From Octopus sinensis (Eukaryota), in the NCBI RefSeq assembly GCF_006345805.1, contig NC_043001.1, positions 97,278,001 to 97,342,000 on the forward strand: a stretch of 64,000 nucleotides of DNA, read 5' to 3'. The notes below the pieces were generated by a model. It was not told the DNA's origin. It did not search any database and saw only the letters and a list, made by a program, of their open reading frames with translations. Below are positions 4,800-61,403 of this stretch, piece by piece. Position numbers and translations under genes: made by a program. Numbering within the stretch: the stretch's first letter is position 1; the number at the start of each line of letters is the position of its first letter.

Positions 4800-5710
4800 T
4801 GGTCAGATATAGGCAATAGAAAATTTGCACCTTCGACCCAACAAGGGTCCTTATGTTACAGTTCAATCACGTGTGTACAGAAAAAGTCCAATATAGAAAC
4901 CTAACGTTCATGCCTATGATCCAGCACATAGCAGTTAAAACCCAGCTGTAAAAATACAGTCCCCATTTTAACGTTTCTTTCGATCCACACTCTCTATAAA
5001 TCTCGTAATGGGTCCTTTGTCAATAAATCATCAACAAACTTAATAGAGAAGATATGTGATTTTGCATTAATATGTAATGCATATCTATACGGAAGAAGGG
5101 TGCCCTTAAAATAATATACGCGGTAAATATCACGCATGATGTTGAACATAACTTTGAAAGACAATATGCAGAAACATGCCGTTGCATAACAAACCGGATA
5201 TACCAGCTAAAGATCAGTCAATCTCAAACTTATGGCATACAAATGATGCGGTATACTTGGCGAAGAAGTTCCACATCCACATCTAAAAAAACAAGTAAGG
5301 ATTCTTTATAGCTCATATAAATTTTGATCAGAAATTCACTTGATCGATTCTGATCTGGAGCTACGCACCAAACTTACAACAACTCCAAGACCATGATCAG
5401 ATATTAAACACAGTTGAAGCGATCGATAATTTCATCCACTATTTATCACAACAATACTAGTAATAAATGTAATAACAGTATACTTCTGAGGAATAGTAAC
5501 GATCTAGAGATAACTACACTTTGGACGGCTTCCATTATCCGATAAACATACCCACACATGTAACACAAAATAATTTTTTAACGTTATCGAAATAATCTCA
5601 AAAATAAGAGATGTTTCTTCTTAAAAATAAGTGATATTCACTGATAGAACGTATCCCCAACCTCCCTTTATTATATAAAACATATTTTTATGGCGAACTC
5701 TATCGCTAAA
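4800..5710 (+). pseudogene. Possible highly decayed Penelope-like RT remnant
   Basis: Hand translation gives scattered fragments in plausible order (YVMHIYT ~ DVxSLYT, IYQ, HYPINIP, YGELYR thumb-like), with many stops and frameshifts. Confidence 0.3.
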
Positions 5711-6512
5711 TGTACAATTCCTTCTACATGTCTGAAACTAAATCTGCTAAAATTGTCATGACAAAAACAAAGACTACATTTCCTACGTTATGGATTCACA
5801 GCTTAGCGTGGTGAAACTAAATACTATAATGGCTTTGTTTCCGTGCTTTCTCATCAATACTACTATAACAATACCTTAAAGAATGAAACTAAAATGCTGG
5901 TTGACAATGGATTAAAGGATTTAATTACCTAAGTAGGTGATATAGTTGGTGTGATAGATAATTGCATTTTCCTAAATGCTCGTGACGGAGAATAATATCT
6001 CTGTTGGGTTTTGAACTTAGTATACAATGAAGGGAACTATATAGTGTCAACGATGTAGAGTTGAGATATTCTTGCGCAAAATCTCCACAGTAATATTTCA
6101 GTCATATTACATGAGCCAACAGGTACGTTTTCTATTTTAATCGAGAAATTTAATAATTCGTCATACGCTATCATAACAATATATATTCAAAACGATAGCA
6201 TGTGCATGAATTCATAATGAAAGGAATGCCAATATGTTAAAATCAATTTCACTGCATTGAAATTAAGAAAAAAAGAAACATGGTGTAACAAGGTACATAC
6301 ATTGTAATCAATGGAATTCTCAGTTGAAATGCGTTCATTGAAAGCGGCCGTATACATACATAAATACATACATACACACACACACACACATATGTATATA
6401 TACACGTATGTATGCATACATATATATATATATCGACATATATATGCACACACAAACACATATACACACATACATGTGCATATATATTATATTACTCTCT
6501 TTACTCTTTTAC

Positions 6513-6550
<38 letters not shown>

Positions 6551-6649
6551 ATTTATATATTTATTTATTTTGTAAATATTTATACATAGATGGACACCTA
6601 TAAAACTGCACACACATATTCGCACGCACATATTTACGTACGTTAATGC

Positions 6650-6714
<65 letters not shown>

Positions 6715-8195
6715 GAATGAGTGCGTGCAATCACATACATATTTAGATATATACAGATTTACAAATGCATATATTCACATATAAGAACACAATTATTTTC
6801 AATATGTAATATGTCCAGATTAGATTTTGCGAAAGTAATATTCGGCAATACGTAATACCAAATTGCATTCTTAACTTTCTAATTCTTCGCAGACAAAAAT
6901 AAAAACGCACCATGCTAATTAGAAATTCAGTCAATGACACATTGATCTCTCATTCAGACGTTTTACTCACCGAGCTAACATAAGTCACTCCATGTAATAT
7001 CTGTTTCACATGGTGGAGACTGTTATACATGTGGGGTATGTTATTGACACGGTTAACACGCTAAAATGCATCCGGGGATGAGGATCCAATTTGGGATCTT
7101 GGAGGTTTCATGAACATGGAGTCATCGTTATTTTACCCTCATTCAAGGTCTCCCTGATCCGGAACGGAGGTACCAATCCGGGTCTCCTCTATGTGTTAAA
7201 TAAATTGTAGTACCGGTAGTGCTAAATTACTATTGTATTCCAATACATAGATAACGTTATGCCAGTTATTTTTACTTCGTGTCTGTTGGTTTCACAAACC
7301 TGCTTATTTGAACTAGGAAAAGTCAATCGCAGAAGCTACGTGAATGTGTGCTATCTTCGTACATACCTATTTGCAATGATTTTGTATCATATCTAAATAC
7401 CACACTAGTACTGGTTAAGTGTGAAACACGCTAAATCATTCGGATTTCAGAATACTTATATAATCTGCGATATGTCGTTTTCCGCGACCGATAATTGATA
7501 CATATTAAAATGATCAAATAGATCACATTGGTCCATGATTAGTATGAACAGCGATTTATCGTCAGGAAAATGGAAATCCGTTAACCCACCTTTACTTTAG
7601 CATGGAAGCAGTAAATGATTGTGCGAAACGGATGTTTACTTTTCATTATTGGGAAATAATATAAATATTCACACAAAGTAAACTGAAACTTCAATTCAGT
7701 TTCATAGTGTACAACAAATAGTTTCTCTCTATCTACTTATTGAGGTAAAATATGTTTATTTCAATAATTTTACTTTTAAAACCAAAATAATATGTGTTGA
7801 GATTTTTTCTTACGTCAACCAATTACAATTGTTACATTGGTGTTTCTTATACTTTTAAAAATATTTATCCACTGTATTGATTTGAATGAGAATTCGTATG
7901 CTGCTTCTAAAGAAGATGGAATACGCTCTTTTGCCCTATCTTTAATATTTATAGTTTATTGAGAGAGGGAAATGCAAAGACCTCTGCATTTGGTCGACAG
8001 AATCTCGAATCGCAAAAGACGAAAGAAGAGAAAGTTATGTACAGATCGTAGATCGGGTCGGAACTCTGCTGACGGTACCTGTTTTTTTCTGCGATGCTGT
8101 TCAACGTCACTAAATCATGCACAAAGATCTAAAACTCTTAGTGTCTATACGACGTAAAAAAGCGTAGTAGTTTGGTAAGAGTAGTGCTAGTACAC

Positions 8196-8428
8196 GACTG
8201 TGAGCTGGCAAAATAATCAGCATGATTCCACCAGCTCGTCGTCTTGAACTAACAAAATGCTTCGCAGTACTTCATCCATCTCTAGGTTCTTAGATTAAAG
8301 GCCGCCCATGTCGACTTAGCTATTCTTCCTCTCGAGTTCGATAAAATAAGTACTTGATGAGAACTAAGATTCATGTAATCGAAGTACCCGCACCTTGATA
8401 TTACTAATCTTGCGACAAAATTTAAACA
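8196..8428 (+). mobile_element. Decayed SINE, family S4
   Basis: GTGAGCTGGCA...AAAATGCTT...GTCGACTTAGC...CGATAAAATAAGTAC...GTAATCGA...CAAAATTTAAA; reverse-complement relatives at 11288, 17279, 18160 and 20771. Confidence 0.65.
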
Positions 8429-11468: not shown

Positions 11469-13173
11469 CTCGGGCAAAATTTCAGAATTTTTAGCTACCA
11501 GTTACATGGCAGGAACATAGTGTAATCAGTAGGATGGAGCGAAAAATGCAACTTTCGACATTGGTAACCAAGAGTCGATATTTTGTTGCAAATTAGGTTT
11601 AAAAGAAAGGTGTATAAAGAGCTGTGTGGTTAAATAATTTTTCAGGTTCCGCAACGCAATTGAAAATTTTAGAAATCGCTTTTTTTCGATTTCATGGATT
11701 ATAAGTGGCAACGAAAATACATTTCTGCATAACAGAATGCAACAGTTTTCTGAGAAGATTGCGTACCAAATTTCAATGCAATTGACTAATATCTTGAGGT
11801 TCCGCATTGACTATAAATAGAACGGGAATGTGACGTCCTCCACTGCCGCTGCGACGGTCGTTGCTTGTGGTCGTACGTCGTACGTGTGTGGGGTTTTCTG
11901 CTTTGTACCTTGACTTTAGGCCATTGTGTTAAAATTAATGACCGTGTTAAATTTAGTGTAGTTTACATTTAGTGATGACTCATAAACCAATAACGCGTTA
12001 TGATATTGAATGCCCAACATTTGGTACAATATTTGTGATCTTTTGGCGATTTTTTGCCAACTTTACAACGACGTACTAAAATGTGTTTATTTGGAGGAGA
12101 AAAAGATAAGAATGTAGTTAAGAAAGATCCTTCCACTAAATAAATTTTCTAGATTGTAGCAGGAAAGATAATTCTTCTTTGGCAAAAGGCATCCACCCCT
12201 TGTGTTACGATTGAGTCAGTTAAACCGAACTTCTTCAAGTTTTATCTAAAGTACAAAGCATTACTAAAATCTGTTGAAACTAGAAAAATGTGCCTTCGTT
12301 TAAAACAAAGTGTAATGTATTTAAAAACAATGCGACAAAATAATTATTTGACATTACCTGTTGCAAGTGCAACTCCTTTCAAAGCTGCAGTTGTAGTAGA
12401 GACAAAGATGTACCACAGAGAGAACAAGATTTTTCACAGGATAAAAGGACAAATCGAATAATGATCATTGGCGCGTTAGATCAAGCAGTATCTAAATAGG
12501 GCGTTCAGAGATTGATTAGGAAGAATCGGTTAGATCATAGTCAACCTTTTACGCCAGGAAAGGATTCTGAATTGATAGCGTGTTTATCAAGTAGTGAATC
12601 AGGTAATGGATCATCAGGTGATGATGAAGTATTTCCAATTCCATTTTCCATGAAACGAAAATCCGTCAGCAAAAACGTAAATTAAAAACACCACTACAAC
12701 GAATGAGATTCCCAGAACTAGCTTGTGACTCTGACTGCACCAGCGGGTCAGACCGTGCTGCTACTCTTCTTACAAGTTCAGACATCGACGACTTAACGGC
12801 AAGAACATTTGTTGAATGTTCTTTCGTTATAGACAAATCGAAGGTAAGGCTGGAATGATCTAGAACACGTAAATCCCTGTAGCAGGAAAGTAGACCACAT
12901 AAGCCATTGTCTGTCGTGTATTTTGATGGAAGGAGGGACACAACCCTTAGAAGTGAACAAATGGGAAAGGCATTTCGTAAGGAAACAATTCAAGAGACGT
13001 AGTAGTTAAGAGCGCGGGTTACTAACACCAAGATTCCGAGTTCGATTCCAGGCAGTGACATGAATAATAATAATAATCATAATCATAATAATACTACTAA
13101 TAATAATAACGACAACAGCAACAACAACAACAACAATAGTAATAATGATAATAATAATAATAATAATAATAAT

Positions 13174-14187
13174 CTGGTCAAATATCTCGAAATATCGAAT
13201 GACTGGATGCTAAAGCTCGTGGAAAATCACGAGAGACGAAAGAAGCTTCATTCTATCATAAAGGAAAGCAAAAAAATTGCTATTGATCTCGTGCAGGATA
13301 CCCAAACTGAACAACCCGAGGGAAGTACGGCAACTATTGTTGCAAAGAAGGTGAAAATGATGGCAATGAAGAAAGCGCACGAGCAATTGGCTGATAGGTG
13401 GGAGGAGAAACCTCTGCACGGCAAATATGTGACCCGCAGCAAACAAGCTGATGTTGACCAGAAGCAAACCCAACAGTGGCTACGGAGCTCAGGGCTAAAA
13501 GCAGAGAGCGAAGGTTTCATCATGGCTGCTCAAGATCAAAGCCTATTAACCCGGAACTACCAGGCCAATGTGATGAAAAATGGAGCAGACCCAAAATGCC
13601 GATTCTGCAACGACATGATTGAAACAGTGGACCACCTAATCTCTGGATGTAAAGTCTTAGCACCAGTGGAGTATAAATTAAGACATGACAGAGTTGGCCA
13701 ATATCTCCACTGGCTAATAAGTCGGCATTACAATATCAAAACTGCCGACAAGTGGTATAATCACCACCCTGAGGCTGTAACTGAAGGAGAAAATGTAACC
13801 ATTCTGTGGGACTTTCCAGTACATACAGACCGAACCATCAAGGCCAATAAACCAGATATTGTTGTGAAAGACCAAAACAATAAAGTTTGCTTATTGATCG
13901 ACATGAGCATCCCCTGTGATCATAATATCTCAGCGAAAGAGTTTGACAAGCTCAGAAAATATAAAGACCTACTCATTGAAATTGAGAAAATGTGGCATCT
14001 CAAGGCGGTTACAATACCAGTGATCGTAGGAGCACTAGGAATGATCAAGAAGGGAACCGAAAATTATATGAGAATGATCCCTGGCTTACCATCCCTGCAA
14101 GAAGTGCAAAAGATTGTCTTAACTGGTACATCACACGATGAGAAGAGCATTGTCGATGTGAGAACTGTTGCTGCTCATGTATTTTAA
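13174..14187 (+). pseudogene. C-terminal third of an R4-clade polyprotein (CCHC knuckle + restriction-like endonuclease)
   Basis: KPLHGKY, AAQDQ, CRFC..ETVDHLISGC, RHD, KPDIVV..IDMSIP, K..KY, IPVIVGALG. The poly-Asn N-terminus of the listed ORF is just the microsatellite. Confidence 0.88.
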
Positions 14188-24674: not shown

Positions 24675-24964
24675 GTATAGAGGGTATTATTACACATAAA
24701 TGCCTCTTAATTGTTAAATATATATATATATATATATTTACATATGTATATATATATATATTATATATATATTACAAAATTAGAGAATGGAGAAATATAC
24801 TTAAATCAGTAAAACATCAACTATCCGATGATACTCAATCCATACTTTAATACACCATTACATATGAGTAAAGGCAATACATAAAATGAAATGAGATATA
24901 CAGTAATAGTAAAAAGATAAAGAGATATAAGTAAAAAATTTTCAAATATAATATGCAAATAATC

Positions 24965-25078
24965 AAAACTGACAGCTGTTTCGGCAGTGAGGACAGTCAT
25001 ACCTCATTTACCTATAAGCCATAAGGCAGGTATAAATGAGGCATTAACAAGGATGCCCCACGGCCTCTTCAGAGAATT
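24965..25078 (-). ncRNA. Hammerhead ribozyme motif, family A
   Basis: Reverse complement of 25988-26103. Confidence 0.72.
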
Positions 25079-25427
25079 AAATTAAATTTGTTATAATAGT
25101 GAAAAATATTATACAATCATATACTATAAATATAAAATATAAAAATGTAAAATATAAAAACTTATACATCATAAAGCTACACTTATATAATATAATACAC
25201 ATTTGTACAAAAAAGGAAGGTAAACAGAACAAAATAAAAAAATATATAATAGTGTATATATTAATATCAATAAGTACCGATATTATACATATTTGGCTAA
25301 TAGTTTTTTTTATACATATAAAAAAAAGGCTAACATATAGGAGATGAAAAATAATAATTAAATCCGTGGTACAGTTCATAAGATTCTAAAGCTATAAAAG
25401 TTAATAAAATTACTATTAATAATAATA

Positions 25428-25465
<38 letters not shown>

Positions 25466-25987
25466 TATAATAAAAAATAGATACAGTTAAGTTAGCACCA
25501 AGTCCATCCTTACAAGATCGAAATAACTATTACTTAGTTATTTCGATCTTGTAAGGATGGACTTGGTGCTAACTTAACTGTATCTATTTTTATTATATTT
25601 TTTTATTATTATTATTATTATTATTACTATTATTATTATTATTATTATTAATAGTAATTTTTATTACTTTTATAGCTTTAGAATCTTATGAACTGTACCA
25701 CGGATTTAATTATTATTTTTCATCTCCATATATGTTAGCCTTTTTTTATATGTATAAAAAAACTATTAGCCAAATATGTATAATATCGGTACTTATTGAT
25801 ATTAATATCACTATTATATATTTTGTTTTATTTTGTTCTGTTTACCTTCCTTTTTTGTACAAATGTGTATTATATTATATAAGTGTAGCTTTATGATGTA
25901 TAAGTTTTTATATTTTACATTTTTATATTTTATATTTATATGTTAATGATTGTATAATATTTTTCACTATTATAACAAATTTAATTT

Positions 25988-26103
25988 AATTCTCTGAAGA
26001 GGCCGTGGGGCATCCTTGTTAATGCCTCATTTATACCTGCCTTTATGGCTTATAGGTTAAATGAGGTATGACTGTCCTCACTGCCGAAACAGCTGTCAGT
26101 TTT
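25988..26103 (+). ncRNA. Hammerhead ribozyme motif, family A (extended stem II, palindromic stem III)
   Basis: CTGAAGA(25994)-GGCCGTGGGG...CCTCACTGCC-GAAA(26086)-C-AGCT-GTC; ACAGCTGT is self-complementary; stem I is weak. Confidence 0.72.
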
Positions 26104-26507
26104 GATTTATTTGCATATTATATTTGAAAATTTTTTACTTATATCTCTTTATCTTTTTACTATTACTGTATATCTCATTTCATTTTATGTATTGCCTTTA
26201 CTCATATGTAATGGTGTATTAAAGTATGGATTGAGTATCATCGGATAGTTGATGTTTTACTGATTTAAGTATATTTCTCCATTCTCTAATTTTGTAGTAT
26301 TAATTTACGGTAATATTTACCTTTACCCATATAATGCAATAGATGAACTGATTGTTTGACAATTTTTAACATCTATGTATTAATTTTGTTGGTACCTATC
26401 TAGCAGTATATTGGATATATATTATCCCATGGTGGGTTGAATTTTCAACCCCTATCTCATTTTATACCTATATATATATATATATATATAATATTATATA
26501 CCGTATG

Positions 26508-26787: not shown

Positions 26788-26822
<35 letters not shown>

Positions 26823-26823
26823 A

Positions 26824-29176
26824 TATAAAATATTATTCGAGACAAAACCAAACCACTATTTTGCAAAACAAACAAGGAAAGACTTAATCAATACATAAAT
26901 TTTAATAAATAGTCAAAAAAACCGCCACTACAATCGTTTCTTGTCTTGATCGACAATCTTCAGGTGGACTTCCAATCTAAAAAAATCATATTTTAAAATA
27001 ATAATAATTTTAAGATAATTAAAGTATGAATGAAAAATATAAGTATATAATCCATATATAACCTATCTATAATCCATATATAATCAATAATAAACAATAT
27101 ATAAACTAAAAAAACCTATCAACAATTAAATATAAAATATAAAATATAAAATATAAAATATAAAATATAAAATATAAAACAAAACAAAATAATAATAATA
27201 ATAATAATAATATAATATTAAACTATATATACACCCATACGCATATACCTAATTATATATAACCATATCTAACTACATACACTAAATCACACACCTATAT
27301 ATATATCCCTATACATACACATAAAAATGTCTAGGCAACTATAAATAATAAAATAGCTAAATACTTCAACACAATACTTATTCATACTCCCACACACCAC
27401 ACCTACAACCCACATTCACGCTCTAGAAAATGGACATCACTCAAAACTATGAACGAGAAATAGAATAATGGAATTAAAAATTATATTCACTTGGTAAAAC
27501 GAACACTACTTAAAAATTATGAATGAAACAATGCAATAAAACAACAGACATCGCAAATAGACACAATTACTACTACAATTCCTTATCAAACCTACCATGA
27601 TAACCAAAACTCATAAAAACATATAATGATAAAATCTCCCTTTACTAAACTCTATAACAAACCTATATAGCAATCCCCCTAACCTAAACATTCACACACA
27701 AATACACACACGTAAACCACACACCCCCGACATATACAAATACCCACCCACATACACACATACCTACATACATATAACCTCAACATATACTCCAAAAACC
27801 CACTCAACCCCCACAAGACAAATAAACACAAAAGTTATAATGGATTCTTTTATAAAACTACCATGATAAGCTAAAACTCACAAAACAGAAATGATAACCT
27901 CCCTTTACTAAACACTAAAACATACTTATATAGCAATTCCTTTAACCTATACTTCACACCAAAACCACTCGTAAACCACACACCCATAACAAATACAAAC
28001 TCCCCCCCCACTCACACACACCCACAAGTACATATAAGCCTCACATATACACCAAACAAAATTACTTACCAAGGAACTTAACATATATAAAAAAAGTATA
28101 ACCGCTCTGGAACGAACATCTCTAAATTAATGAATGGAGAATGGAATAAATGGAATTAAAAATAAAATTCACGTGGCAAAACGAACACCACTCAAAAATT
28201 ATGAATGAAACAATGTAATAAAACAACCAACATCGAAAATAGACAAATTACAACGAATTCCCTAAAAAAAAAAAACCATGATAAACCAAAACTCCTAAAA
28301 ACATATAACGATAAATCTCCCTTTGCTAAACTCTATAACAAACCTATATAGCAATCTCCCTAACCTAAACATTCACACACAAATACACACTCGTAAACCA
28401 CAGACCCACGACTTATACACATACCTATACTAACTTATAACCTCATATACAACCAAAACCACTCCCTCCCACACAGACAAATTAACACATACATCCCAAA
28501 ACCTAAATAACAAACCCATATACACATTCACACAAACACACACACCGCAAAACACACACACCCAACAGATACATATACTCCCTCACATATACGCATATAC
28601 ATACTCACTAAACTCGATATATACAACAATATTTACACACCCACACTCATACAGATAAATAAATTATACAACTAAAAACTCGCACACAATCTCTTATACA
28701 TAAACACACCTATGAAAACAACATTAAATACATCGTAATTAACCAGAATATCAAAAATAACAATATGACATAAGATAAATAAAATACATACTTACAATTC
28801 AGTGTCAAATTATGAAGTGAAATTAAATTCTTAGCCGTTAAAAAAATCAAACCAAAATTACGTTACCATAGAAATAACTTATGTAAAAAAAGAATACGCG
28901 TCATGGAAAGTAAACGTCATTTAAATTATGAATGGAGAAATAGAAAAATGGAACTAAATTTTGGTGTATATTGAGGTTTATAAATTAGAAACAATTGTAG
29001 TGGCGGTTTTTTTGACTATTTATTAAAATTTATGTATTGATTAAGTCTTTCCTTGTTTGTTTTGCAAAATAGTGGTTTTGTCTCGAATAATATTTTATAA
29101 TATTTTACTATAAAATCGATTTAATCCTAAATCTGATTTTTTCCCTGTAAATTTGGATTTATTCCCTAATATTTAT

Positions 29177-29180
<4 letters not shown>
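26824..29180 (+). mobile_element. Family B fold-back element 1: long inverted part, short sense arm 28987-29099, tail 29100-29180
   Basis: 26824-~26941 is the reverse complement of 28987-29099; internal degenerate CA-rich subrepeats; (TA)n on both sides; homologous to 30928-35179. Confidence 0.85.
26925..26967 (-). ncRNA. Hammerhead ribozyme motif, family B
   Basis: Minus strand: ccac-CTGAAGA-ttgtc-gatcaa-gacaa-GAAA-C-gatt-GTA-gtgg. Confidence 0.8.
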
Positions 29181-29255
<75 letters not shown>

Positions 29256-29257
29256 GG

Positions 29258-29306
29258 AGCTTCTACAGGACTAGTACTGTTTCATTCAAGAGAATCTTCA
29301 GGAAGC
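29258..29306 (-). ncRNA. Hammerhead ribozyme motif, family D (inverted copy)
   Basis: Minus strand: gcttc-CTGAAGA-ttctcttgaat-GAAA-cag-tactagtc-ctGTA-gaagc. Confidence 0.7.
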
Positions 29307-29310
29307 CCTG

Positions 29311-29361
29311 AGCTTCCTGAAGATTTCTCTTGAATGAAACAGTACTAGTCCTGTAGAAGCT
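29311..29361 (+). ncRNA. Hammerhead ribozyme motif, family D
   Basis: agcttc-CTGAAGA(29317)-tttc tctt gaat-GAAA(29336)-cag tactagtc ct-GTA(29353)-gaagct; 6-bp stem I, 4-bp stem III, short stem II with a U-U closing mismatch. Confidence 0.75.
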
Positions 29362-29444
29362 CCTTCTATATAATAAATTAATTTTACTCTGCTATGTATT
29401 GAGTACCTTACTTACTGTGGTTAACCCCGGATCAACCCGGGACC

Positions 29445-29480
<36 letters not shown>

Positions 29481-30672
29481 CACACACACAGATATATATA
29501 TATATATAGAGAGAGAGAGGTGCAAATGAGAGTAGCTGTATCAAACTCCATTCTTCACCAAGTGCCACATATTAGACGAGGTTCGTCGTAATAACAGCAT
29601 AGAACAAAACGGCGGTGCATCAGCATGGCCGCAGCTCGGAGCTAAAACTAGAAAAAAAAAAATATATATATGAATGTAGATATTGTAAAGCGTACCGAGG
29701 AAAATTTATAAACTTATTAAAATCGTTTGTGCGTGTGAAAACACACGCTCTCACTGAGCTACAGACAACTACCTATGCATGTATGTGTCCGCATATACGC
29801 ACAAACACACTAATACAGATGCTGATACACACATACGCAAACACCCAAACGCACAAACATACACACTCATATGTTCTTTAGTCTTGAAATTGTTGTTCGG
29901 TCTAAGACTGTGTATATGTGTTTAGCTTAGTTTTTGTTAGTTTCACTATTCAATGAGTGAGTATATACGTTTTACTTCCCGTGTTTGTTGATGAATTATA
30001 GATAAATCTAAAGGAATTACATCGACATGAGTGGCGTTTCATTATCAATGTCTCAGAGTTTTGAATTATTCGGTAACGTCCAGTATATCAGACGGAAAAT
30101 ATTGCTTGATGAAGTTAAAAAAAAAAGATTTTCTAACATTACAAAAACAAAAAAGAAAACAGCAAAAATACCCACATATTAGTAAACAAAGTATTTTTTA
30201 AAAGTAACATTAAATAAAATTACCCCTACAAAAAGAAAGGAAAAATAAATAGAACTAATATATATCAAGCGACAAGCAGACAGACAAATACGTTGTAGAC
30301 AAAAGCGATGAGACCTGGAGTGATGCCAAATTGAAAATACAGCGAAATGGTGAAGGATGAAAATAATTAGGACTATGTTGAAAATGTTTCGTTAAATTGA
30401 ATGATTTTTCTGAAAAGAAACGAAAACATAGAAAAATGTAATTGGAAATCAATGACGAAGACACTTTTCATGCATGGGTTCATGATTTTCTATATATCGT
30501 GTTAGTCTATTTGGTCAGTTCATAATCAGTCTAGAATCAGTTTAAGAGATTTAAGGTTTAGAATAATGTGTGATAATGATGTACACATGCCTTCTGAAAA
30601 CAACGTGTTATTTGTCTATTCGTAGTCAATGCTACGTAGTAATATATTTGAAGATAATATGTATATATACAT

Positions 30673-30714
<42 letters not shown>

Positions 30715-30823
30715 GTATACATATATACATATATACATATATATACATATATACATATATATAAACATATATATATATATATATACATATATATACATAT
30801 ATATATATACATATATATAAACA

Positions 30824-30858
<35 letters not shown>

Positions 30859-31112
30859 GTATACATATAGATAGATATATAAACATATATATATGTATGT
30901 ATATATACATATATATATACATATATAATAATAATAATAAATATTAGGGAATAAATCCAAATTTACAGGGAAAAAAATCAGATTTAGGATTAAATCCAAT
31001 TTTATAGTAAAATATTATAAAATATTATTAGAGACAAAACCACTATTTTGCAAAACAAACAAGGAAAGACTTAATCAATACATAAAATTTTAATAAATAG
31101 TCAAAAAAACCG

Positions 31113-31155
31113 CCACTACAATTGTTTCTTGTCTTGATCGACAATCTTCAGGTGG
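31113..31155 (-). ncRNA. Hammerhead ribozyme motif, family B
   Basis: Reverse complement of 35044-35086. Confidence 0.82.
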
Positions 31156-34100
31156 ACTTCCAATCTAAAATATCAATATTTTAAAATATAAAAATAATAA
31201 TTTTAAAATAATTAAAGTATTAATGAAAAATATAAATATATAATCCATATATAACCTATATATAATCCATATATAATCAATATATAAACAATATATAAAC
31301 TAAAATAAACCTATCAACAATTAAATATAAAATATAAAATATAAAATATAAAATATAAAACAAAACAAAAAAATACTAATAATATAATAATAAACTATAT
31401 ATACACCCATACACATATAACTAATTATATATAACCATATCTAACTACATACACTAAATCACACACCTATATATATATCCCTATACATACACATAAAAAC
31501 GTCTAGGCAACTATAAATAAATAAAATAGCTAAATACTTCAACACAATACTTATTCATACTCCCACCACGGACAAATAAACACATACATCCCCAAAAATT
31601 GGGCGCAATCCCACTCACACCAATCATATATGTATACAATTATACACACAAGAATAATACATTACTAACCCAAATATACAGAACATACCAAAAATCACCA
31701 ACAAACCACCATCACAAATGAAACCCACACCCATACAATGACAACCCCCCCCCTCCATACCCAATTTACACCCACATAGCAATCCCCATATATTCATCCA
31801 TACACGGACGCACGTGCGTGAAGCACATGCACACAACAAATACGTACAACCCCCCCAATACACACTCATATACATACGTATTAAGCTCGACATCCACAGC
31901 AATACGCTTACACCCACTCACACCCAGATGGGTGAACTGCACAACAAAGGAACGCACACACACACGTGTGCTTATTTTGATTGTGCACTTCGCCCATCAG
32001 CATGTATGCGGGCGTGATTACACCGTTGCACATATCGAGCCCAACTAGCATGCACATGTACATGTGAGTGGGTACACGCACATGCCGTGCGCGTGTACCC
32101 CCCGCATTTATACCCGTGCGTGAATATACACATGGAGACTACCACACAGGTACAAATGTGTATAGTAAAGGGAGCCCCATCACTACACTCAATGTATACT
32201 CTCACCCATCCGCACGGATGTGAAAGCGAATCACCGGTGTATATATTGAGGCTAATACGTAGCGTTGTGGAGGCGAACGTCGTTTAAATTGTGAATGAAT
32301 GGGTGGAGTTGGGAATTGTAACCGGGTGGTGGGCTAGCGTTGCTTAGAATTGGGAATGGAATAGTGTAGTAGAATCGCAGGCATCGAGAATAGACTTGGG
32401 TTACTGCAAATTGTTTGTTAGAGCTGCCAAGATGAGATAAAGCTCATAAATGTATATAATAATTTATCATGGTAGTTTTATTAAAGAATCCATTCATAAT
32501 AAATTTTTTTAAGTAGTGTTGGTTTGCGACGTGGATATAGTTTTTAGGTCCATTTATTCTATTTCTCCATTCATAATTTTAAATGACGTTTACTTTCCAT
32601 GGCGCGTATTCTTTTTATACATAAGTTATATTTCTATGGTAACGTAATTTTGGTTTGATTTTTTTAACGGCTTAGAATTTAATTTCACTTCATAATTTGA
32701 AACTGACTTGTAAGTATGTATTTTATTTCTCCTTATGTCATATTGTTATTTTTGATATTCTGGTTAATTACGATGTATTTAATGTTGTTTTTCATTGGAG
32801 TGTTTATGTATATGAGATTGTGTGTGAGTTTTTAGTTGTATAATTTATTTATCTGTATGAGTGTGGGTGTGTAAATATTGTTGTATATATCGTGTTTAGT
32901 GAGTATGTATATGCGTATATGTGAGGGAGTATATGTATCTGTTGTGTGTGTGTGTTTTGCGTGTGTGTGTGTTTGTGTGTGAATGTGTATATGGGTTTGT
33001 TATATAGGTTTGGGGATGTATGTGTTAATTTGTCTGTGTGGGGAGGGAGTGGGTTTTTGGTGTATATTGAGGTTTATAAGTTAGTATAAGTATGTGTGAG
33101 TGAGGTGGGTATTTGTATAAGTCGTGGGTCTGTGGTTTACGTGTGTGTATTTGTGTGTGAATGTTTAGGTTAGGGGGATTGCTATATAGGTTTGTTATAG
33201 AGATTAGCAAAGGGAGATTTTATCGTTATATGTTTTTAAGAGTTTTGGTTTATCATGGTTTTTTTAGGGAATTCGTGGTAATTTGTCTATTTTCGATGTT
33301 TGTTGTTTTATTACATTGTTTCATTCATAATTTTTGAGTGGTGTTCGTTTTGCCACGTGAATATTATTTTTAATTCCATTTATTCCATTTCTCCATTCAT
33401 AATTTTAAAAGATGTTCGTTTACAGAGCGGTAATACTTTTTATACATATGTTAAGTTCCTTGGTAACGTAATTTTGTTTGGTGTATATGTTGAGGCTTAT
33501 ATGTACTTGTGGGTGTGTGTGAGTGGGGTGGGTGATTGTATTTGTTATGGGTGTGTGGTTTACGTGTGTGTATTTGTGTGTGAATGTATAGGTTAAAGGG
33601 ATTGCTATATAAGTATGTTATAGTGTTTAGTAAAGGGAGGTTTTATCATTTATATTTTTGTGAGTTTTAGTTTATCATGGTAGTTTTATAAAAGAATCCA
33701 TTCATAATATTTTAAAAATAATGTTGGTTTACCGCGTGTATATAATTTTTAATTCCATTTATTCTATTTCTCCATTCATAATTTTAAGTGAGGTTTGCTT
33801 CCATAGAGCGTATTTTTTTTTATACATAAGTTATGCTCCTATGGTAACGTAATTTGGTTTGATGGTTTTAACGGATTAGAATTTAATTTCACTTCATAAT
33901 TTGAAACTGACTTGAAAGTATGTATATTATTTCTCCTTATGTCATATTATTATTTTTGATATTCTGGTTACTTACGATGTATTTTATATATCGTATTATG
34001 TGTAATAATGTTGTTTTTCTTTGGAGTGTTTATGTATGTGGGATTGTGTGTGAGTGTGTGCGTATTTTGGTTGTGTAGTTTGTTTATCTGTATGAATGTG

Positions 34101-35043
34101 GGTGTGTTAATATTGTTGTATATGTCGAGTTTGTGTGAGTATGTATATGTATATGGTGTGTGTTTTACGTATGTATATTTGTGTGTGAATGTGTTTATGG
34201 GTTTGCTATTTAGGTTTGGGGATGTATGTGTTTATTTGTCTGTGTGGGGTTGAGTGGGTTTTTGGAGTATATGTTGAGGTTTATATGTATGTATAGGTAT
34301 GTGTAAGTGTGGTGGGTATTTGTATATGTCGTGGGTGTGTGGTTTACGTGTGTGTATTTGTGTGTGAATGTTTAGGTTAGGGGGATTGCTATATAGGTAT
34401 GTTATAGAGTTTAGTAAAGGGAGATTTTATCATTATATGTTTTTATGAGTTTTGGTTTATCATGGTAGGTTTGTTAAGGAATTCGTAGTAATTTGTGTCT
34501 ATTTGCGATGTCTGTTGTTTTATTGCATTGTTTCATTCATAATTTTTAAGTAGTGTTCGTTTTACCAAGTGAATATAATTTTTAATTCCAATTATTCCAT
34601 TCTCCGTTCATAATTTTAAGTGATATCCGTTTCCAGAGCGGGATTGTGGGTTGTATGTGTGTGTGTGGGAGTATGAATAAGTATTGTGTTCAAGTATTTA
34701 GCAATTTTATTTATTTATAGTTGCCTAGACGTTTTTATGTGTATGTATAGGGATATATAATAGGTGTGTGATTTAGTGTATGTAGTTAGATATGGTTATA
34801 TATAATTAGTTATATGTGTAGGGTGTATATATAGTTTATTATTATATTATATTATTTTTTTGTTTTGTTTTATATTTTATATTTTATATTTTATATTTTA
34901 TATTTAATTGTTGATAGTTTATTTTAGTTTATATATTGTTATATATTGATTATATATGGATTATATATTTATATTTTTCATTAATACTTTAATTATTTTA
35001 AAATTATTATTTTTATATTTTAAAATATTGATAGATTGGAAGT

Positions 35044-35086
35044 CCACCTGAAGATTGTCGATCAAGACAAGAAACAATTGTAGTGG
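35044..35086 (+). ncRNA. Compact type I hammerhead ribozyme motif, family B
   Basis: ccac-CTGAAGA(35048)-ttgtc-gatcaa-gacaa-GAAA(35071)-C-aatt-GTA-gtgg; ACAATTGT palindrome in stem III; predicted cleavage after 35082. Confidence 0.85.
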
Positions 35087-35417
35087 CGGTTTTTGACTAT
35101 TTATAAAAATTTTATGTATTGATTAAGTCTTTCCTTGTTGGTTTTGCAAAATAGTGGTTTTGTCTCTATAATATTTTATATACAATATATTATAACATTT
35201 ATATATATATATATATCAATATATAACATATATATACATTATAATATATATTATACATACATATATATATAAATATATATATACATAAATATATATACAT
35301 ACATATATATATATATACATATATAAAAATAACTATATATTCATATATATATATACATATATATATATACATAAATATATATACATACATATATATATAT
35401 ACATATATATATATATA

Positions 35418-35655: not shown

Positions 35656-38600
35656 TCACTGGAATACTTCTGTATATACGATGTTCCTAGCTGTCCGTTT
35701 GGGCGGAAACATGAAAACATCATTGCGCCTCCCAACGCGTGAACAGCCCACGTAGAGTTGACCGTGGGCGAAGCACTGTTCGCCCAAATGTAACCCAGCG
35801 ACTTGTAGCGTTTGGCCTTGGGATTTATTGATGGACATTGCGAAGCAGAGTTTAACAGGAAACTGAGAACGCCTTGAATTGGAGTAGGTCAGCGCCCGAC
35901 GGTTGAAGGTGCATCCGTGGAATGAAGACGTCCTCTCCCTTCCCACAACCGGTAAGTATTGTGGCCGTTATTAAATGTGGTGCCAAATGTTTCACAACCA
36001 AACGTGTGCCGTTGCACTGTTTAGGTGGAACCAAATTCCTGATGAGCATAATGGGCGCACCGACTTTTAACTTCAGGATGTGTGGTGGCAGGCCTGGCGG
36101 TTCAAGTGAATTCAGGAATTCAACAGGATAATCGGCAAGCTGGGCGGGGTCTGCTGTCCTATCTATAGATTTGTAGACGTGGACATCACCAGGAATAGCT
36201 TCAAGTAGCTGGATATTGATGGAGTTGACGGTTGTATTTTGGGGTGCGAGAATAGCTCTGCCTGCCAGCCATTTTAGGTCGCGTAAATTGTTTTGTAGGT
36301 CGTGGAAGACAGCGTCCGGAGGCTAGCAGGGGTGTCGACAATGGTGCAAAGTGAGTCCAATTGAACGTAGCCATCCGCATCAGACAGCATCCTATTTTCA
36401 CCGAGCGATAAGAGGTCCCTGGAGAATGCAGCGGATCCGCTGTCACCAATTAACTGCGCGCGCATGTTAGTTTGGAGGTGCAAGGGCCGCACATGTGCCC
36501 AAAGAGCTGACGACTTAAGGCACGCGCGCACGGCATCGGCACGGGTTCCTTTTGGAATAACAGGTAGAGTCTGCCTGAAGTCTCCTGAAAGAAGTAAAGT
36601 TAATCCTCCCATGGGGGCCGTAGAGTCTTGCAGGGACCTGTCCAGTGCCTCAAGGGCGCCTTTGTGTGCCATAGTGCACTCGTCCCATACGATGAGTTTG
36701 CATCTGCGCAGAATGTCGGCCTGTTCTGAGTTCTTGGCGATGTTGCAGATAGGTGACTCGGACTTTGCCAGATCGAGCGGGAGTCTGAAGGCAGAGTGGG
36801 CGGTTCTGCCACCCGGAAGCAACGTGGCCGCGATACCAGAGGAAGCTACAGCCAGGACAATGTCCGTGTTGCGTCTGACCTCTGCCAGAATTAGTTTAGT
36901 GACGAAGGTTTTGCCAGTGCCGCCGGGTGCATCAAGGAAGAAAATTCCCCCCACGTTGCTGTCTGACAGAGTTTACGATGGTGTTGTAGGCTATGCGCTG
37001 GTCTGGAAGCAGCCGTGGTTCATTATCTTGGACGTACTGGTGCAGTTCCTCAATGCAGTAGGAAGTTTCGCGTAACAATTCAGCAGACATAACATTGGCG
37101 TGTTCACGTGTGGGTGGTGGAAGGCCGTACTCTGTTAAAGCAGACCCACCCATATCGATGACAGCGTCTTCGAGTTGAATGAGCGCAAAATTGTAAATGA
37201 AGTTGGTGAACGTGATCTCGGCGGAAGGGCAGTGTTGCTGAGCCGTACGTAAGAAGTCGTGCGACATGTCATCCCTGTATTTCATCCAGAGACTTAGTGG
37301 ATCACTAAGCTGACATTTTTGAAGAAGGATTGCGAAAAGATGTCGTAGGGCCGAATGCGTTTGCAGTAAAGCACCCTCTGCCATCGTGGCGTCCCACTGG
37401 GAGTCATCCTCTAGAAGGCCAAGTCTCATACATGCTTCCCTGAAGGTGTCGCACAGAACCCCATTGACGGTACGTATATTGGCGAAACCTGTTGGACCAG
37501 TGACCTCATGTAGAAGGAGACGGAGGTAGAAGCATTCTTGCTGGTTTGGCGGGATGTTGTAAACTCGACCCAGGCAGGAGTCAAACTTGACGCCTGGGAA
37601 GCTTTCGACGTTTTTGCCGGATTTCCGTCGAACCCAGGTGTTTTTAGACCACACGAAGTACGATGGGACCTGTGGGTACAAAAGCGTTCGAGCGAAGTCA
37701 TCACGTTGGCATAATTTGAAGAAACCAGTCAACGTTGTGTCTTTAGGGCTGGTGGCTATCTGCACAGCACTTTGCTCTGTGAAGTAAATCTGCTGTCCAT
37801 TTTCCAAGTGTACAGCAAGCTGCACCACAGCCGGGTGTCTCTGATGGAGCGGGAAGCCGTAAATGCGCCAAAACGCTTCGTTGCTGCTGAGGTACCGGCC
37901 AGCCAAGTAGTTGGACACTTCGTCGCGACTGGTGGTCCTCTGGATGCTGAACATGGCAGCATCGCTGCCTTTGTTGATATATTTGCAGACATATTGTATT
38001 GACCTGATGGAGCTGCAGAACTCAACGTTGACGTGGGCTTTGAATATCTTCGACAGGAGAGGACAGTAGGGGACAATGTAGCTGTTGTCCACTTGATGTC
38101 GCCCAACCGTAATCGTGCGGCCTCCATTGGCTGGACTCCTTCGTTTGTACAGCGGATACCCATCGCCGCCTGTTTGAGTCTCCAAAGTGAACCGTTTAGG
38201 GAATCCCTTTGAGCAGGCTAATCCGTTTTTGTAGCATGGTGTGTTGGCGTAATTTGGTCCACAGGGCCCGTGTACCATGGTAGTGCGGACAATTTCGTAG
38301 AGTCCGGGGTCCTCATCGGGGTCAGGAATCTCGGCGGAAATGAATTTGTCAATGTCATTAGTCTCGATTTTATGAGTGAGCCAAATTAAGATGTGAGCAT
38401 GTGGCAAGCCCCTCTTTTGCCACTCGACCGAAAACATGTGGCACCTGACATGCCCGAAAATCTGACTCTTAACTATCAAATCCTTCATTTTGCCCAAATT
38501 CAGACGGAAAACCCTAGCAACGATGTCGTGTCGATGGGTGTGAGATTGACCCGGGAGGAGTTCGCGAGTGATTTCGTCGCAGCTGGGATTGCACGTGTAG

Positions 38601-40514
38601 GTGATAAAGAGGTCCGGCCGGCCGTAAATGCGCACGTAGGTCAAGGCGTCTTGGGTCCTTTCACGCATATATCGCGGTCCTCCCGTGAAGGTGGAGGGTA
38701 GAATGCATGGCTTGCCGATGTTGCGAGGGTCATTTTCTTGTTGCAAACCGTCACGGAGATGAATGTAGGAGTCGGAGCGAAGTTTGGTCTGATTAAGTTT
38801 AATGTATAGCAGCCTTTCCGATTCCATTTTTGCGGCCATATCGACGGCGAACTGGTTGAATAGCTGACGACAACGGGGCAATAAGTTGAACTCACCCTCC
38901 CTGACCATGAACCGGTATGAGTAGAACGCCCTGCAGGAAACCGTCTTTGATGCCGCAGTAGTTTGATTGGAGGGCTGCCGTAAAGGAATTCCGAAGTGGT
39001 AGCCGTCTTCCCCATAAGGGAAAAGCAATGGATAGTGAAGCGCGTCATAAGATCTGTGAGTCTCGCTGATCCTGTGTAGGTTGTTACCACGGGAGGAGAT
39101 GATTATGTCACGGCTGTTGTGTTGCTCTCCGTGTATAACTGCGGCAATTTCGTTGCACGCAGGTGCGTTGAAACGGCGTTCGTGCTCCCCGTGGGGTCGT
39201 TTATCAGCATCAATGACAACGGTGAAGTTTGGAGATGGAGCACTGTCCAAGGCATATCTGAAGCTGCAGACGTAGCTGTTGATATCATGAAGCATGTTTG
39301 GAGACGGAGAAGAATGTCTTTGCGGGGAACATAGCTTGTACCCGGTATTATTCCAAGGCGTGCATCAACCTGGTGGTTGTAGTCGGCAATGAAGTATATT
39401 TGGAGGAAAGAAGACTGCTGAATCTCGTCTGGCAGAAGTGACCCAATAAGATGGTAGACCTGTCCCTGCACTTTGAAAGTAGGCATCCAGCCTTCTCTGG
39501 GAGGAATTTTGGCCCCAAAAGAGGTCATTTGGAATGAGCAGTTGTACTTTCGAATTATTTCAAGGAATTGTGACGAATCGGGGGTTAAACCCGCCGCGAG
39601 ATCCTTCAGTGGTTGAGGTGGTTCCCGTAGGGGTGGCAGGTCCACTTTGCCACCAGAGCAGCACAAACCAGGTGGCTCTCCGGGCCATTTCTTGGCTTTG
39701 CAAAACTGGCATACAATTGTCATTGACCCTATCTTGATGTCGTCACGCAAGGAGAAGTTAATTGTGGCGTCGTAGTTGAATGCTAGTGACAACCAGAAAG
39801 CGGGGGCAGGGGTACGTACACCACGAATGATATCCCGACGTTTGTTGATACTCTCAAGTCGAGTGCACCGTGCCTCAGCAGATTCAGATGCACGTGCGAC
39901 AGCGGTAGCAGTGGCATCCTTGAAAGCCTTTCAGCTCTCGCCTCAGCACCCTCTGAAGCCCTAGCAGAAGCAGTGTTAATGGCATGTCTGGATGTCCGAA
40001 TAGTCCGTTGGTGTGGAGTTTCGGCAGATCGAGCCCTGGCTGTGTTTGCGGCGTTAGCAGCTTGGCGAGCTCTCCTCTGTTGAGGTGTTTCGGCAGCTTT
40101 GGCCATGGCTTTGTTTGCGGCGTCAGCATCTTGGCGAGTTCTCCTCTGCTGTGAGGTTTCGACAGATCGTGTCCTGGCAGTGCTAGTGGCGTTAGCCGCA
40201 TTCCGAATGGCCCTTTGTTCGGGGTTCTCGCGAGCTCTGCGGATGGAAGCACAGTAAGAAGCCCGCATGTTTTGGCTGGACTGTTGCTCTTTCGTCAACC
40301 TCGAGCGGAGGGAAGATCTGTACGCTGCGACCCTTGCAAGTCGGGTAGAACGGTCGCTAGTAGTTTCAGATGCCTGAGCAGCGGCATAACGGGAAGCTGT
40401 TTGCGAGAGGCGCAAGGCGGTTTCCTCGTGGGTCTCGCGTGCCCTTCTAGCCCTAGCAGCCGATGCCTTGGCCGTCCGAGGGCTGAGGAGGGTCCTTCTC
40501 TTCTTGGGTGGCAT
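35656..40514 (-). pseudogene. Helitron RepHel (HUH Rep + PIF1-like SF1 helicase), split by several frameshifts
   Basis: Start MPPKKRR (ATG 40514). Rep motifs PDLFITYTCNP, VEWQKRGLPHAHILI, YVCKYINKG. Helicase motifs DAPGGTGKT, IVWDEC, GDFRQTLPV, QFPVKLCFAMSINKSQGQTL, HGQLYVGCSRV. Spread over overlapping ORFs 39783-40670, 39103-39792, 36932-39295, 36274-36954, 35852-36049 and 35656-35946. Confidence 0.93.
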
Positions 40515-40634
40515 TTTGGTGGATAGCAATGTGTTTGGCAAAGGTGTAATAAAAAGGAACACGTGGGGTAAGTATTTTGGTGGATAGCAATGTGTTTGGT
40601 AAAGGTGTAATAAAAAGGAGCTCGTGGGGTAAGT
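40513..40634. repeat. 61-bp direct repeat x2 just upstream of the RepHel start
   Basis: ATTTTGGTGGATAGCAATGTGTTTGG.AAAGGTGTAATAAAAAGGA.C.CGTGGGGTAAGT at 40513 and 40574. Confidence 0.9.
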
Positions 40635-41849
40635 ATCCGAAAACGTATAAAAATGTACAAAAACGGCCAAAAGCTGGCAGCAATGTGAGTGACAACAACG
40701 AAAAAGTCAAAAGTGATCAAACTGAACAAACGAAAGGAAAAGTTTTTTGATGCACACGACAAAAGTGGTTTATAATAAACCAAGAGTTTGCAAGTAGCGT
40801 CCGAGGACCGTTAGGGTACGTCAAAAATTGAAGGTAAAACGTTTGGGGTGGTAGTTATAAAGAAAGTTTAAACCAAAAAAGTATTCGAATAACTTGCGGC
40901 TGCAGCAGCTATTAGCAGAAGTGGCGGTGTTGGGGGTAAAGTCTCGAATGTAATTTCTTCCTGGTAGGAATTGGTTGGATCGAATTATCGATAGCTAAAA
41001 AGGTCAAGTTGCGTCCCCTAGACACTCTGGTTTGTGTTTAATACACAAATTTGTTTGCTATGTGTGCCACATATGATTAAATTAACCGACTTTTTCCAAT
41101 AATGTATCCTATTGGAATAAAAAGGGCTATATAGCTCCTTGGAGCAGACATGATGCTCGTTGTGAAAAAAAAAAGATTCCTGCCAATTTGTGAAAGATAT
41201 TGTCGAAAATATGTCATCTTGAATTTGAACGCGATTTCCCAAAATGGCATGATTTTATCGATTGTTTCTGATGGTAAGGTATTGCATGGAAAACTAACGT
41301 CAGAATTGAGTTTCTTAGGGTAACATTAAGCTTCACCATGAGTTTGGTGAAAATCGATTGCAAGTTGTGAAAGCTACCATAGATAATGCGTTGCATAAAA
41401 AAAGCTTAGATTCTCGAGTTGCGTCCCCTAGCCAGTCTGTGGTTCATGTTTATGATTCTCGACCCCATGTCGAATTTATCAATTTTTTTTCAGAACTGGG
41501 GGAACTTTTCAAAATTTTCGCTGCGTTAGTTTTGAATTATGACATTGGGCTATGTGTGTGTCAAGTTTCATCAGAATCGGTTGAAAGCCGTGGTCAGAGT
41601 GAGGGTACGAGAAAACAGACACACAGAAGCACGCACAGACAAACTGCCGTTTATATATAGATATATATATATATATATATAAGTAAAAATTCATTATCTG
41701 ATTATCTATGAATTCGTCACCTTTTGCGTTCTCTCGTTTTGCATATATACATATACACATATATTTGGTATTTCAAACAGAAACTAATATAATTGATATA
41801 TTTTATATATTTAATATCTAGTTGTTTACCAAACAACTTTCACATTCAA

Positions 41850-54797: not shown

Positions 54798-57008
54798 TTA
54801 GAGCTGGAAACAGTTGTCGAAACAAAGCGTGCAGCTCTGATGTAATACAAGAGTGATTCTTCTATAGAATCACTCAAAGAATTCAGAAAGGCAAGAAATA
54901 AAACCCAACTGACTGCCAGACGCTGTGCAAATAGTATCCAGTCAACTGCTGACAGTCGCGACACCTGTGGGACGTATGCAGGTTTGAAGAAGGCCCTTGG
55001 TCCATCCGCAACCAAGTCAGCCCCTCTGAAATCAACTACTGGGGATCTCATCAAGGACCAAAGCAAGCAAATGGATAGATGGGTGGGATACTACCAGGTT
55101 CTCTACTCACGAAAGACCATGGTAGCTGAGGCTGCAATCGAGGGTGTCAGGATCTTGCCAGTCATGTGTGAACTTGACAGTCTGCCATCTATAGCAGAGC
55201 TCACCAAGGCTATTGACTTCCTAGCAAGTAACAAGGCTCCGGGAAAAGACGGCATCCCCTTAGAGATCATCAAAACTGGCAAAAACACCATCCTGCTTCG
55301 GCACATTTATGAGCTTCTGTGTCAGTGCTCGGAATAGGGTATAGTCCCTCAGGATATACGGGATGCTAACATCATTACGCTTTACAAAAACAAAGTTGAC
55401 CGTGGTGATTGTAACAATTACCGTAGAATATCTCTTCTAAGCACTGTTGGAAAGGCTTCTGCTCGCATTATTCTGTCCAGGCTGTAAGTGCTTGCTTCTC
55501 GAATTTATCTAGAATCGCAGTGTGGCGTTAGAAGCAGCAGATCAAGTATTGACATGATATTCACCTTACGCCAATTTCAGGAGAAGTCCAGTGAGCAGAA
55601 AATGCCATTATATATGGCCTTCATTGCTCTGACAAAGGCCTTTGAATTGGAAAGTAGAAAAGGACTCTTCATCCTGCTCCAAAACATCGGATGTCCATCA
55701 AAGCTGCTGAGGATCATTACATCTTTCCATGATGATATGCAAGGCACCATACAGCACAATGGTTCAACATCAGCGGCCTTCCAAATAAAAAATGGGGTAA
55801 AGCAAGGTTGTGTCCTTGCTCCTACATTATTTGGCATCTTCTTCTCGCTGCTGCTGTCACATGCCTTTGTGACATCAGATGATGGAGTGTTTCTGCACAG
55901 TAGAAGTGATGGGAAACTGTTCAATCTCTCGCGTTTGCGTGCCAAGACCAAAATCAGAAGCGACCTGATCTAGGAGATGCAATTTGCTGATGATGCCACT
56001 CTGGTATCACACACAGAAGAAGCCCTACAAAGGCTCATCAACTGTTTTGAGCAAGCATGTGGCAACTTTGGCTTATTTATCAGCCTCAAGAAGACCAACA
56101 TTATGGGTCAGGCTACATTTACCTTCCCAAACATACATATTGGAGACCACAGACTACAGGAGGTGGAGAAGTTTACCTATCTTGGCTCGACCGTCACCTG
56201 CAACATATCCCTTGCTACTGAGCTCAATATACGCTTTGGCAAGGCAGCTTCTGGGATGGCCCAACTCTCCAAACGGGAATGGGACAACAATAAGCTGACC
56301 AATACCACAAATTGAAGATTTACCAGGCATGTGTACTTAGCACTCTACTGTATGGAAGTGAGACTTGGACGCCATACACGCGCCATACGACCCCATACGT
56401 CGCCTAAATATCTTTCACCTGCGCTGCTTCCGGAAAATCCTTCGCATCAAATGGCAGAACCATGTCCCCAACAAAGATGTCCTCAAGCAAGCAGGAATAT
56501 CAAGCATGTTTACACTCCTCACACAAAGACGTATGAGATAGCTTCGACGTGTTAGCCGTATGGAAGATGGCAGAATCCCCAAGGACATACTCAACGGAGA
56601 GCTTGCTGGGGGCACTAGGTCTGTGGGAAGACCGTTCTTACGATACAACAAGGATGTTTGCAAAATTGACATGAATGCCTGCAACATCAATATTACCAAC
56701 TGGAAAGCAGTTGCCAGCAACCGTGGAGATTGGCGACATACCGTAAAAGAGGTAACACAAAGGAGTGACATAGAAGGAGATGAGAAATGGAAAGACAAGA
56801 AAAGACGTAAACAAGAAAGTATGACCTTACAACCAGCCAGGCAAAGTCTTCGCTACATGTGCAGCACCTGCCAGAGAGAGTGTTTGTCCAGGATAGGACT
56901 ACACAGCTACAGCAGGAGATATATTAGGACATGGAATGTAAAAGCCGGACTAGATTATTTTATGCGCAACTCCGTTGTCTTCCGAGACAAAAAGGATGCC
57001 AACAACAA
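54796..57008 (+). mobile_element. 5'-truncated RTE-clade LINE, decayed
   Basis: RT motifs KAPGKDGIP, ESQCG.R..RSSIDMIF, GVKQGCVLAPTLF, QFADD, FTYLGS, MEDGRIPK, and C-terminal CSTC..CLSRIGLHS; (CAA)n tail; several stops and frameshifts. Confidence 0.92.
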
Positions 57009-57014
57009 TATATA

Positions 57015-61366: not shown

Positions 61367-61403
<37 letters not shown>

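Follow-up and report, generated by a model that had tools for sequence, protein, structure and literature searches.

Introduction

A piece of DNA that consists of little more than two opposed hammerhead motifs and a tail raises the question of whether it moves on its own or is left behind by a larger element. We addressed this question for a hairpin of about 200 bases at positions 29251-29448 of the window, by which we mean the whole 64,000-nucleotide stretch of Octopus sinensis DNA analysed here. The first-pass annotation of this locus had allowed for either a minimal mobile ribozyme unit or a very short Penelope-like insertion. Endonuclease-bearing Penelope-like elements are described as inserting as a unit of a pLTR, an adjacent inverted and 5'-truncated copy, and an optional tail (PMC8557442, PMC3846280). 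Inverted pLTRs, junction palindromes, one-sided tails and nearby opposite-strand hammerheads are all in print already (PMC3846280, PMC8557442, PMC4209133).

Results

Structure of the hairpin

The head-to-head arrangement was confirmed in the sequence. Positions relative to the parent element described below are numbered from the A of AGCTTCC (window 29311) as +1. The left arm (29251-29306, 56 nt, minus strand) is an inverted copy of parent positions from about +2 to +58, and the right arm (29312-29368) measures 57 nt; one A missing from the left arm is present in the near-identical copy L002. Between the two arms lies, as annotated, a plus-strand CCTGA spacer (29307-29311), composed of a CCT filler, a G at -1 (29310) and the A at +1, the putative transcription start. 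The element is bounded by two (TA)n target tracts without assigned strand, at 29180-29250, also the end of a fragment of another family (28701-29180), and at 29449-29476. On the plus strand, an AT-rich site at 29365-29382 (+55 to +72, mostly +68, which is 29378) forms the border with (TA)n in inverted arms and short solo copies; it is the candidate inner priming site, and the left arm would be the cDNA primed there. The plus-strand tail (29379-29448) ends in ACCTACA at +138 (29448), the candidate outer priming site, and continues in the parent as TATCC and on into the 5' leader and then the ORF. The tail hairpin CCCGG-ATCAAC-CCGGG recognised earlier is indeed present at 29426-29441. The tail end shared with the window's family A stood in part: ACCTA before (TA)n also occurs in that family (26461-26471), but the true end here is ACCTACA before (TA)n. 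Most copies have a 4-bp stem in the tail hairpin and CTAG as the palindrome; the 5-bp stem and the 6-nt ACTAGT seen here occur in a minority subfamily.

One hammerhead core lies on each strand, at 29317-29355 on the plus and 29301-29264 on the minus strand. These are the only two matches in the 64 kb to our motif scan, which is blind to motifs with a very short stem III. Each arm amounts to about one hammerhead, as the annotation had it. In the plus-strand type I motif (29311-29362), stem I pairs 29311-29316 with 29356-29361 (6 bp, or 7 counting the spacer G), followed by the core at 29317-29323, a weak stem II at 29324-29335, GAAA at 29336-29339 and a 4-bp stem III around the palindrome ACTAGT (29344-29349), with a predicted cut after 29355 (+45). 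The corresponding minus-strand core starts at 29301 and its cut site lies after 29264. The CUGANGA core, GAAA, NUH and stems I and III of type I hammerheads are all present, and the core position that differs among subfamilies is N7. Stem II consists of a U.U at 10.1-11.1 and then 3 bp; the G10.1-C11.1 pair that closes stem II in type I hammerheads (PMC4209133) is absent. An Rfam search returned no hammerhead family at E<=1, just generic hairpin matches under their cut-offs.

The fold of 29251-29400 has a z score of -21, so the hairpin is not a chance structure. Its total energy is -101.5 kcal/mol versus about -11 kcal/mol for each hammerhead fold alone, a weak structure with z about -0.8. The antisense arm would be transcribed first on either strand, and the ribozyme fold would therefore be blocked in a hairpin transcript, which makes the annotation's idea of an RNA switch unlikely. 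The hammerhead lies within the first 52 bases of the predicted parent RNA and would hence be carried along in copies.

The window contains several other repeats. A second family occupies 26820-35200 as several direct and inverted fragments (e.g. 35037-35200 plus, 30933-31150 minus and 28701-29180) and has its own hammerhead motif, with a CTGAAGA core, a 4-5 bp stem II and, for stem III, the palindrome CAATTG. One of these fragments ends in the (TA)n that houses the studied element, and L009, L029 and L331 sit in the matching tract of other copies of the family. A third family, family A of the first-pass annotation (24762-26471 and 60700-61490), is also head-to-head: its arms at 25473-25591 pair perfectly over 54 bp, its hammerhead-like core carries a long insert, and its tail, about 175 bp long, ends in ACCTA before (TA)n. 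The ORFs at 35852-40700 (minus), which are in pieces, we take by their motifs to be Helitron-like Rep and helicase; those at 13006-14187 and 54846-57075 (both plus) are presumably non-LTR retrotransposon fragments. A short ORF piece at 62616-63146 (plus) matches the thumb region of the parent described below over its first 41 residues (46% over 37 aa) and continues in an asparagine-rich stretch that recalls the N-rich inserts in PMC3846280. Elsewhere, at L245:2000-2330, a long and imperfect inverted repeat with a 40-nt spacer was seen that is unrelated.

The parent element

The hairpin corresponds to the first ~138 bases of the end repeat of a longer element plus an inverted copy of the first ~60-70. 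A longer, ORF-bearing parent, as the first annotation had proposed to look for, was found at L207, where an inverted copy with tail is followed by a pLTR, a leader, a reverse transcriptase-endonuclease ORF, roughly 3 kb of 3' sequence and then a further, tailless pLTR. An adjacent inverted 5'-truncated copy is thus a feature of this family as well. The unit spans 5,388 bp from hammerhead to hammerhead, and its ORF is broken by frameshifts in that copy. By motifs, an ORF linking reverse transcriptase to a C-terminal GIY-YIG-type endonuclease was recognised in L207 and nine further long loci; the ORF end was reached from L164, and a first look gave 419 candidates in the genome. The motifs found are RWR (for RWK), DKT, CxCX5C, CxxC and CxH, with a GIY-YIG-like C-terminal domain that has no inner cysteine pair, and a Pfam scan returned no relevant family. 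On its motifs the parent fits a Hydra-like Penelope-like retrotransposon.

In parent coordinates, a TATA-like box, TATAAAT, starts at -29, although such hexamers are easy to find in AT-rich DNA; the predicted ribozyme cut falls after +45 and the end of the tail between +136 and +138, and the start codon would probably lie some 50 bases past the tail. Many tail-bearing copies extend upstream through a T-rich and then a simple-repeat-rich region. A pattern search for parent sequence reading through past the tail returned target junctions only. A GIY-YIG ORF near L158 was rejected as the parent ORF: it belongs to a different family, and the shared sequence starts only downstream of it. That other Penelope-like family (L158, minus strand, 5600-8400) has a zinc-finger-type GIY-YIG domain and an inverted repeat of its own.

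Copies across the genome

We searched the source genome (2.72 Gb, 13,516 contigs) for further copies. The best 40 scored matches were all full-length or nearly so, 94-100% identical and distributed over many contigs. Exact patterns, which give lower bounds, identified at least 468 head-to-head junction sites, versus 0 for the reversed control, and at least 1,733 tail ends. Counted by spacer, 6 sites have the CCTGA junction and 12 have TCTGA, which differs from it by one base. The annotation's reading as a very short Penelope-like insertion thus gained support, except that the hairpin is neither a one-off nor a random truncation: it belongs to a stereotyped class that makes up 31 of 91 sampled tail-bearing insertions.

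Contigs of sequencing runs from three organisms also match the repeat; the seven runs used to look for RNA evidence give contigs, which carry no information on starts, strand or level. Loose ends of some contigs resemble what we take to be a template-switch adaptor; these lie on the opposite strand, in single contigs and in no case at +1, and were set aside as evidence for a start.

A boundary at +1 and an extra G

To locate the 5' ends we used 91 tail strands from the first 90 of the 1,733 tail sites, all on contig C1 and all exact-tail copies, two of them a local duplicate. Eighteen strands start at +1 and 13 at +3 to +12, compared with 2 at -12 to -1 and 3 at -140 to -13; the others extend past -140 (40) or start below +12 (15). 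The boundary is sharp (31 starts at +1 to +12 versus 2 at -12 to -1, p = 1e-7), and all 31 strands starting at +1 to +12 carry the inverted arm. Genome-wide, parent bases upstream of +1 are present in the short junction at 9 sites (11 matched the pattern), compared with 468 junctions. Two palindromes lie just upstream of +1, GTTAAC (6 bp) and CTAG (4 bp); three of the nine upstream-base sites join at the former and none at the latter. Among 49 sampled junctions, a perfect AGCT join was seen in 20 and upstream bases in none. Self-complementarity alone would not account for the peak at +1, which a physical RNA end would explain. Three sites (G000:C6:11809012, C8:10882978 and C12:29788857) have the same palindromic junction, some 12 bases upstream of +1, which our model does not explain and which may reflect a minor start site or duplication.

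The base next to this boundary is also distinctive. At 19 sites with all-distinct flanks, +1 abuts (TA)n directly, with G at -1 in 11, T in 3 and a short TCAG fold-back in 5. The parent has T at -1, and the window copy has G (29310). A genome-wide count of G versus C at -1 (189 versus 14) was set aside as an unfair control because locally templated fillers ending in GA also give G, which leaves the 19 sites as the clean set. For L1 and SVA, copying of the cap has been given as the source of the untemplated G found at complete 5' ends (PMC3287187, PMC4859970). Taken together, the TATA-like box at -29, the +1 boundary and the extra G, all read from DNA, would fit a start site inside the pLTR and a cap at +1.

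Two probable cDNA products in one hairpin

The outer end of the inverted arm falls between +55 and +75, mostly at +68, and at the same place in long insertions, four of which (L091, L094, L160 and L162) start with the same inverted arm end. Both products exist alone between (TA)n tracts: among 11 sites of solo products with the extra G, 7 end at the inner site (~+68), 3 at the tail end and 1 otherwise. In L110, L276, L304, L123, L131, L143 and L145 the short arm keeps bases that are missing from the tail strand, and it was thus not copied from that strand. The tail was called on exactly one side in 48 of 49 junction copies, L268 being a two-tailed exception. One tail per insertion suggests that the two priming events are coordinated, as would suit the dimer predicted for PAc, a purified Penelope-like protein (PMC11167929).

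From these features we propose, with a probability of roughly 70%, that the hairpin is a dead-end by-product, formed by the head-to-head joining of two target-primed cDNAs after run-off at the capped 5' end of the element's RNA. The element endonuclease would cut both strands of the (TA)n tract. Each DNA end would then prime reverse transcription through a homology of a few A/T bases, one of them at about +138, the tail end, and the other near +68. With priming in the 5' leader of the mRNA, not in the downstream repeat, both cDNAs would reach +1 after only 70-140 bases, and the cap would often be copied as an extra base. The two cDNA 3' ends would then anneal through the self-complementary AGCT or be patched by short, locally templated fillers such as CCT. 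The tail would simply be the distance between the two priming sites, and all copies would derive from uncut RNA. Long insertions would arise from the same two sites in the downstream repeat, each cDNA being 5'-truncated at a random point. The short product has no promoter box and would fold into a single long hairpin, which would keep its hammerheads silent. The earlier suggestion that the element pinpoints cis-required sequences holds for the two putative priming sites, which it marks; the TATA-like box lies upstream and outside, and the element thus does not hold all cis sequences.

Alternative explanations

The high copy number, close identity and fixed size of the hairpins are also what might be expected of a minimal, MITE-like ribozyme element that propagates itself, its read-through transcripts being copied whole by the parent enzyme; some junctions do recur, and the retention of both priming sites would allow occasional recopying. 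The junctions speak against it, falling into 20 types in 49 copies (taken from the 50 sites at the head of the junction list). Four marker backgrounds are represented among the CCTGA copies, which have the tail on the right in 4 cases and on the left in 2, and TCTGA has it on the right in 10 and on the left in 2. Among strict-pattern matches, subfamily markers are equal between the arms in 24 of 24 copies, and each of the four marker types with short copies also has long ones (17:19, 4:3, 2:2 and 1:1); a fifth type has 4 long copies only. Moreover, the unit has no promoter box inside. Varied junctions, a tail on either side, matching arm markers and long copies of each type together indicate that the hairpin is made anew at insertion, and the minimal mobile ribozyme unit of the first-pass annotation is quite improbable.

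The remaining alternatives concern how the +1 junction arises. Reverse transcriptase copying a long RNA from the downstream repeat might stall or fall off at the far side of the hammerhead and add an untemplated base, with joining as in run-off. The 5' strand of stem I does start exactly at +1, and the 40 long strands among the 91 mean that long templates are in use, but stalling would be expected on entry into the helix, near +51, where no pile-up is seen, and not after exit; the hammerhead fold is weak, and the added base is specifically G at clean junctions (11 of 14 non-fold-back sites). We regard stalling as unlikely. Self-priming of the second strand by a single folded-back cDNA, the route suggested for rotifer elements on an antisense template (PMC3846280), would explain why the arms are always alike, and fold-back does occur, given the 5 of 19 target-joined sites with a short remnant whose extra base matches the subfamily. 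As a general route it is improbable, in view of short arms with bases that the tail strand lacks, the existence of solo short products, asymmetric joins that, among 9 oriented cases, left the short arm intact 6 times and the tail arm 3 times, and a +1 boundary that it leaves unexplained. Hammerhead cleavage as the determinant of the ends has in its favour one strand that starts exactly at +46 (L269) and one tandem junction exactly at the cut site, a single case of a tandem pLTR whose upstream copy ends there (L217, G000:C1:1599710). The centre of the fold lies 45 nt from the cut site, though, and junctions showed no enrichment there, the 11 pattern matches at the cut being mostly small indels and the 12 target-joined sites near it forming no peak. 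The predicted cleavage appears to have left no visible trace in the junctions; this cause is already largely refuted and very improbable.

Discussion

Retroviral strong-stop DNA is a short cDNA ended by the RNA 5' end, and the hairpins of our run-off model would resemble it in stopping there. L1 twin priming yields non-overlapping inverted pieces; here, unlike L1, both cDNAs would cover the same 5' bases and give a palindrome. What would be shared with L1 is that two target ends prime on element RNA and that complete 5' ends carry an extra G (PMC4859970, PMC3287187). The closest parallel in vitro is PAc, from Poseidon of Anolis, which cuts and extends both strands of an AT-rich target, initiates at a pair of internal sites that flank the tail and works on uncleaved RNA, with no need for the hammerhead; a small stem-loop with an A/C-rich loop also lies near the outer site (PMC11167929). 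PAc priming was reported without target homology; in the present family, each of the two ends has a few A/T bases in common with (TA)n. The available text does not link the inverted repeats to run-off at the cap (PMC11167929).

Among Penelope-like elements, the head-to-head inverted copy, junction palindrome, one-sided tail, (TA)n targets and hammerhead in the pLTR all match the published insertion unit, which is described with variable 5' truncations and a 30-40 bp tail; here there is a fixed class stopping at one base, an extra G and a tail of ~70 bp. The Hydra clade has in common with the parent RW[K/R], DKT, CxCX5C, CxxC, CxH, the C-terminal GIY-YIG-like domain without inner cysteine pair, a hammerhead and (TA)n targets; its members are generally <3 kb, a tendency and not a strict criterion, versus 5.4 kb here with ~3 kb of simple-repeat-rich 3' sequence (PMC8557442). 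Non-LTR retrozymes are likewise non-coding, pLTR-derived and equipped with type I hammerheads, but form head-to-tail tandem units with two hammerheads on one strand, in contrast to the dispersed head-to-head pairs on opposite strands here (bioRxiv 10.64898/2026.07.22.740005). PMC13282606, in its available text, lists Penelope families without hammerhead detail. Our literature search, mainly of freely accessible papers, found no publication tying the junction to a start site and cap; this sequence-based evidence is what the present analysis adds to the head-to-head hairpins.

More broadly, and at somewhat less than even odds, these hairpins may be the strong-stop DNA of Penelope-like elements, mapping start site, cap and both priming sites to the base. 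The head-to-head repeat and one-sided tail of all endonuclease-bearing Penelope-like elements would then arise when twin priming takes place in a coordinated way on capped and uncleaved sense RNA, and neither an antisense template nor a ribozyme cut would be needed. Tandem and inverted Penelope-like structures have been ascribed to still undefined features of the cycle (PMC8557442), and head-to-head palindromes have been explained by self-priming on an antisense template (PMC3846280); hundreds of natural, base-precise products point to a mechanism other than the latter. What 5' mapping and the existing in vitro system should show can also be predicted exactly from this family. As a caution, a short hammerhead hairpin in a repeat library is not necessarily a mobile ribozyme. 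Ordinary as an object, the hairpin studied here is useful as evidence on mechanism. The hairpins are a real, abundant and likely dead-end insertion class of a Hydra-like Penelope element, and those transcribed in passing would yield a ~60-bp double-stranded RNA matching the parent leader, a possible trigger of silencing.
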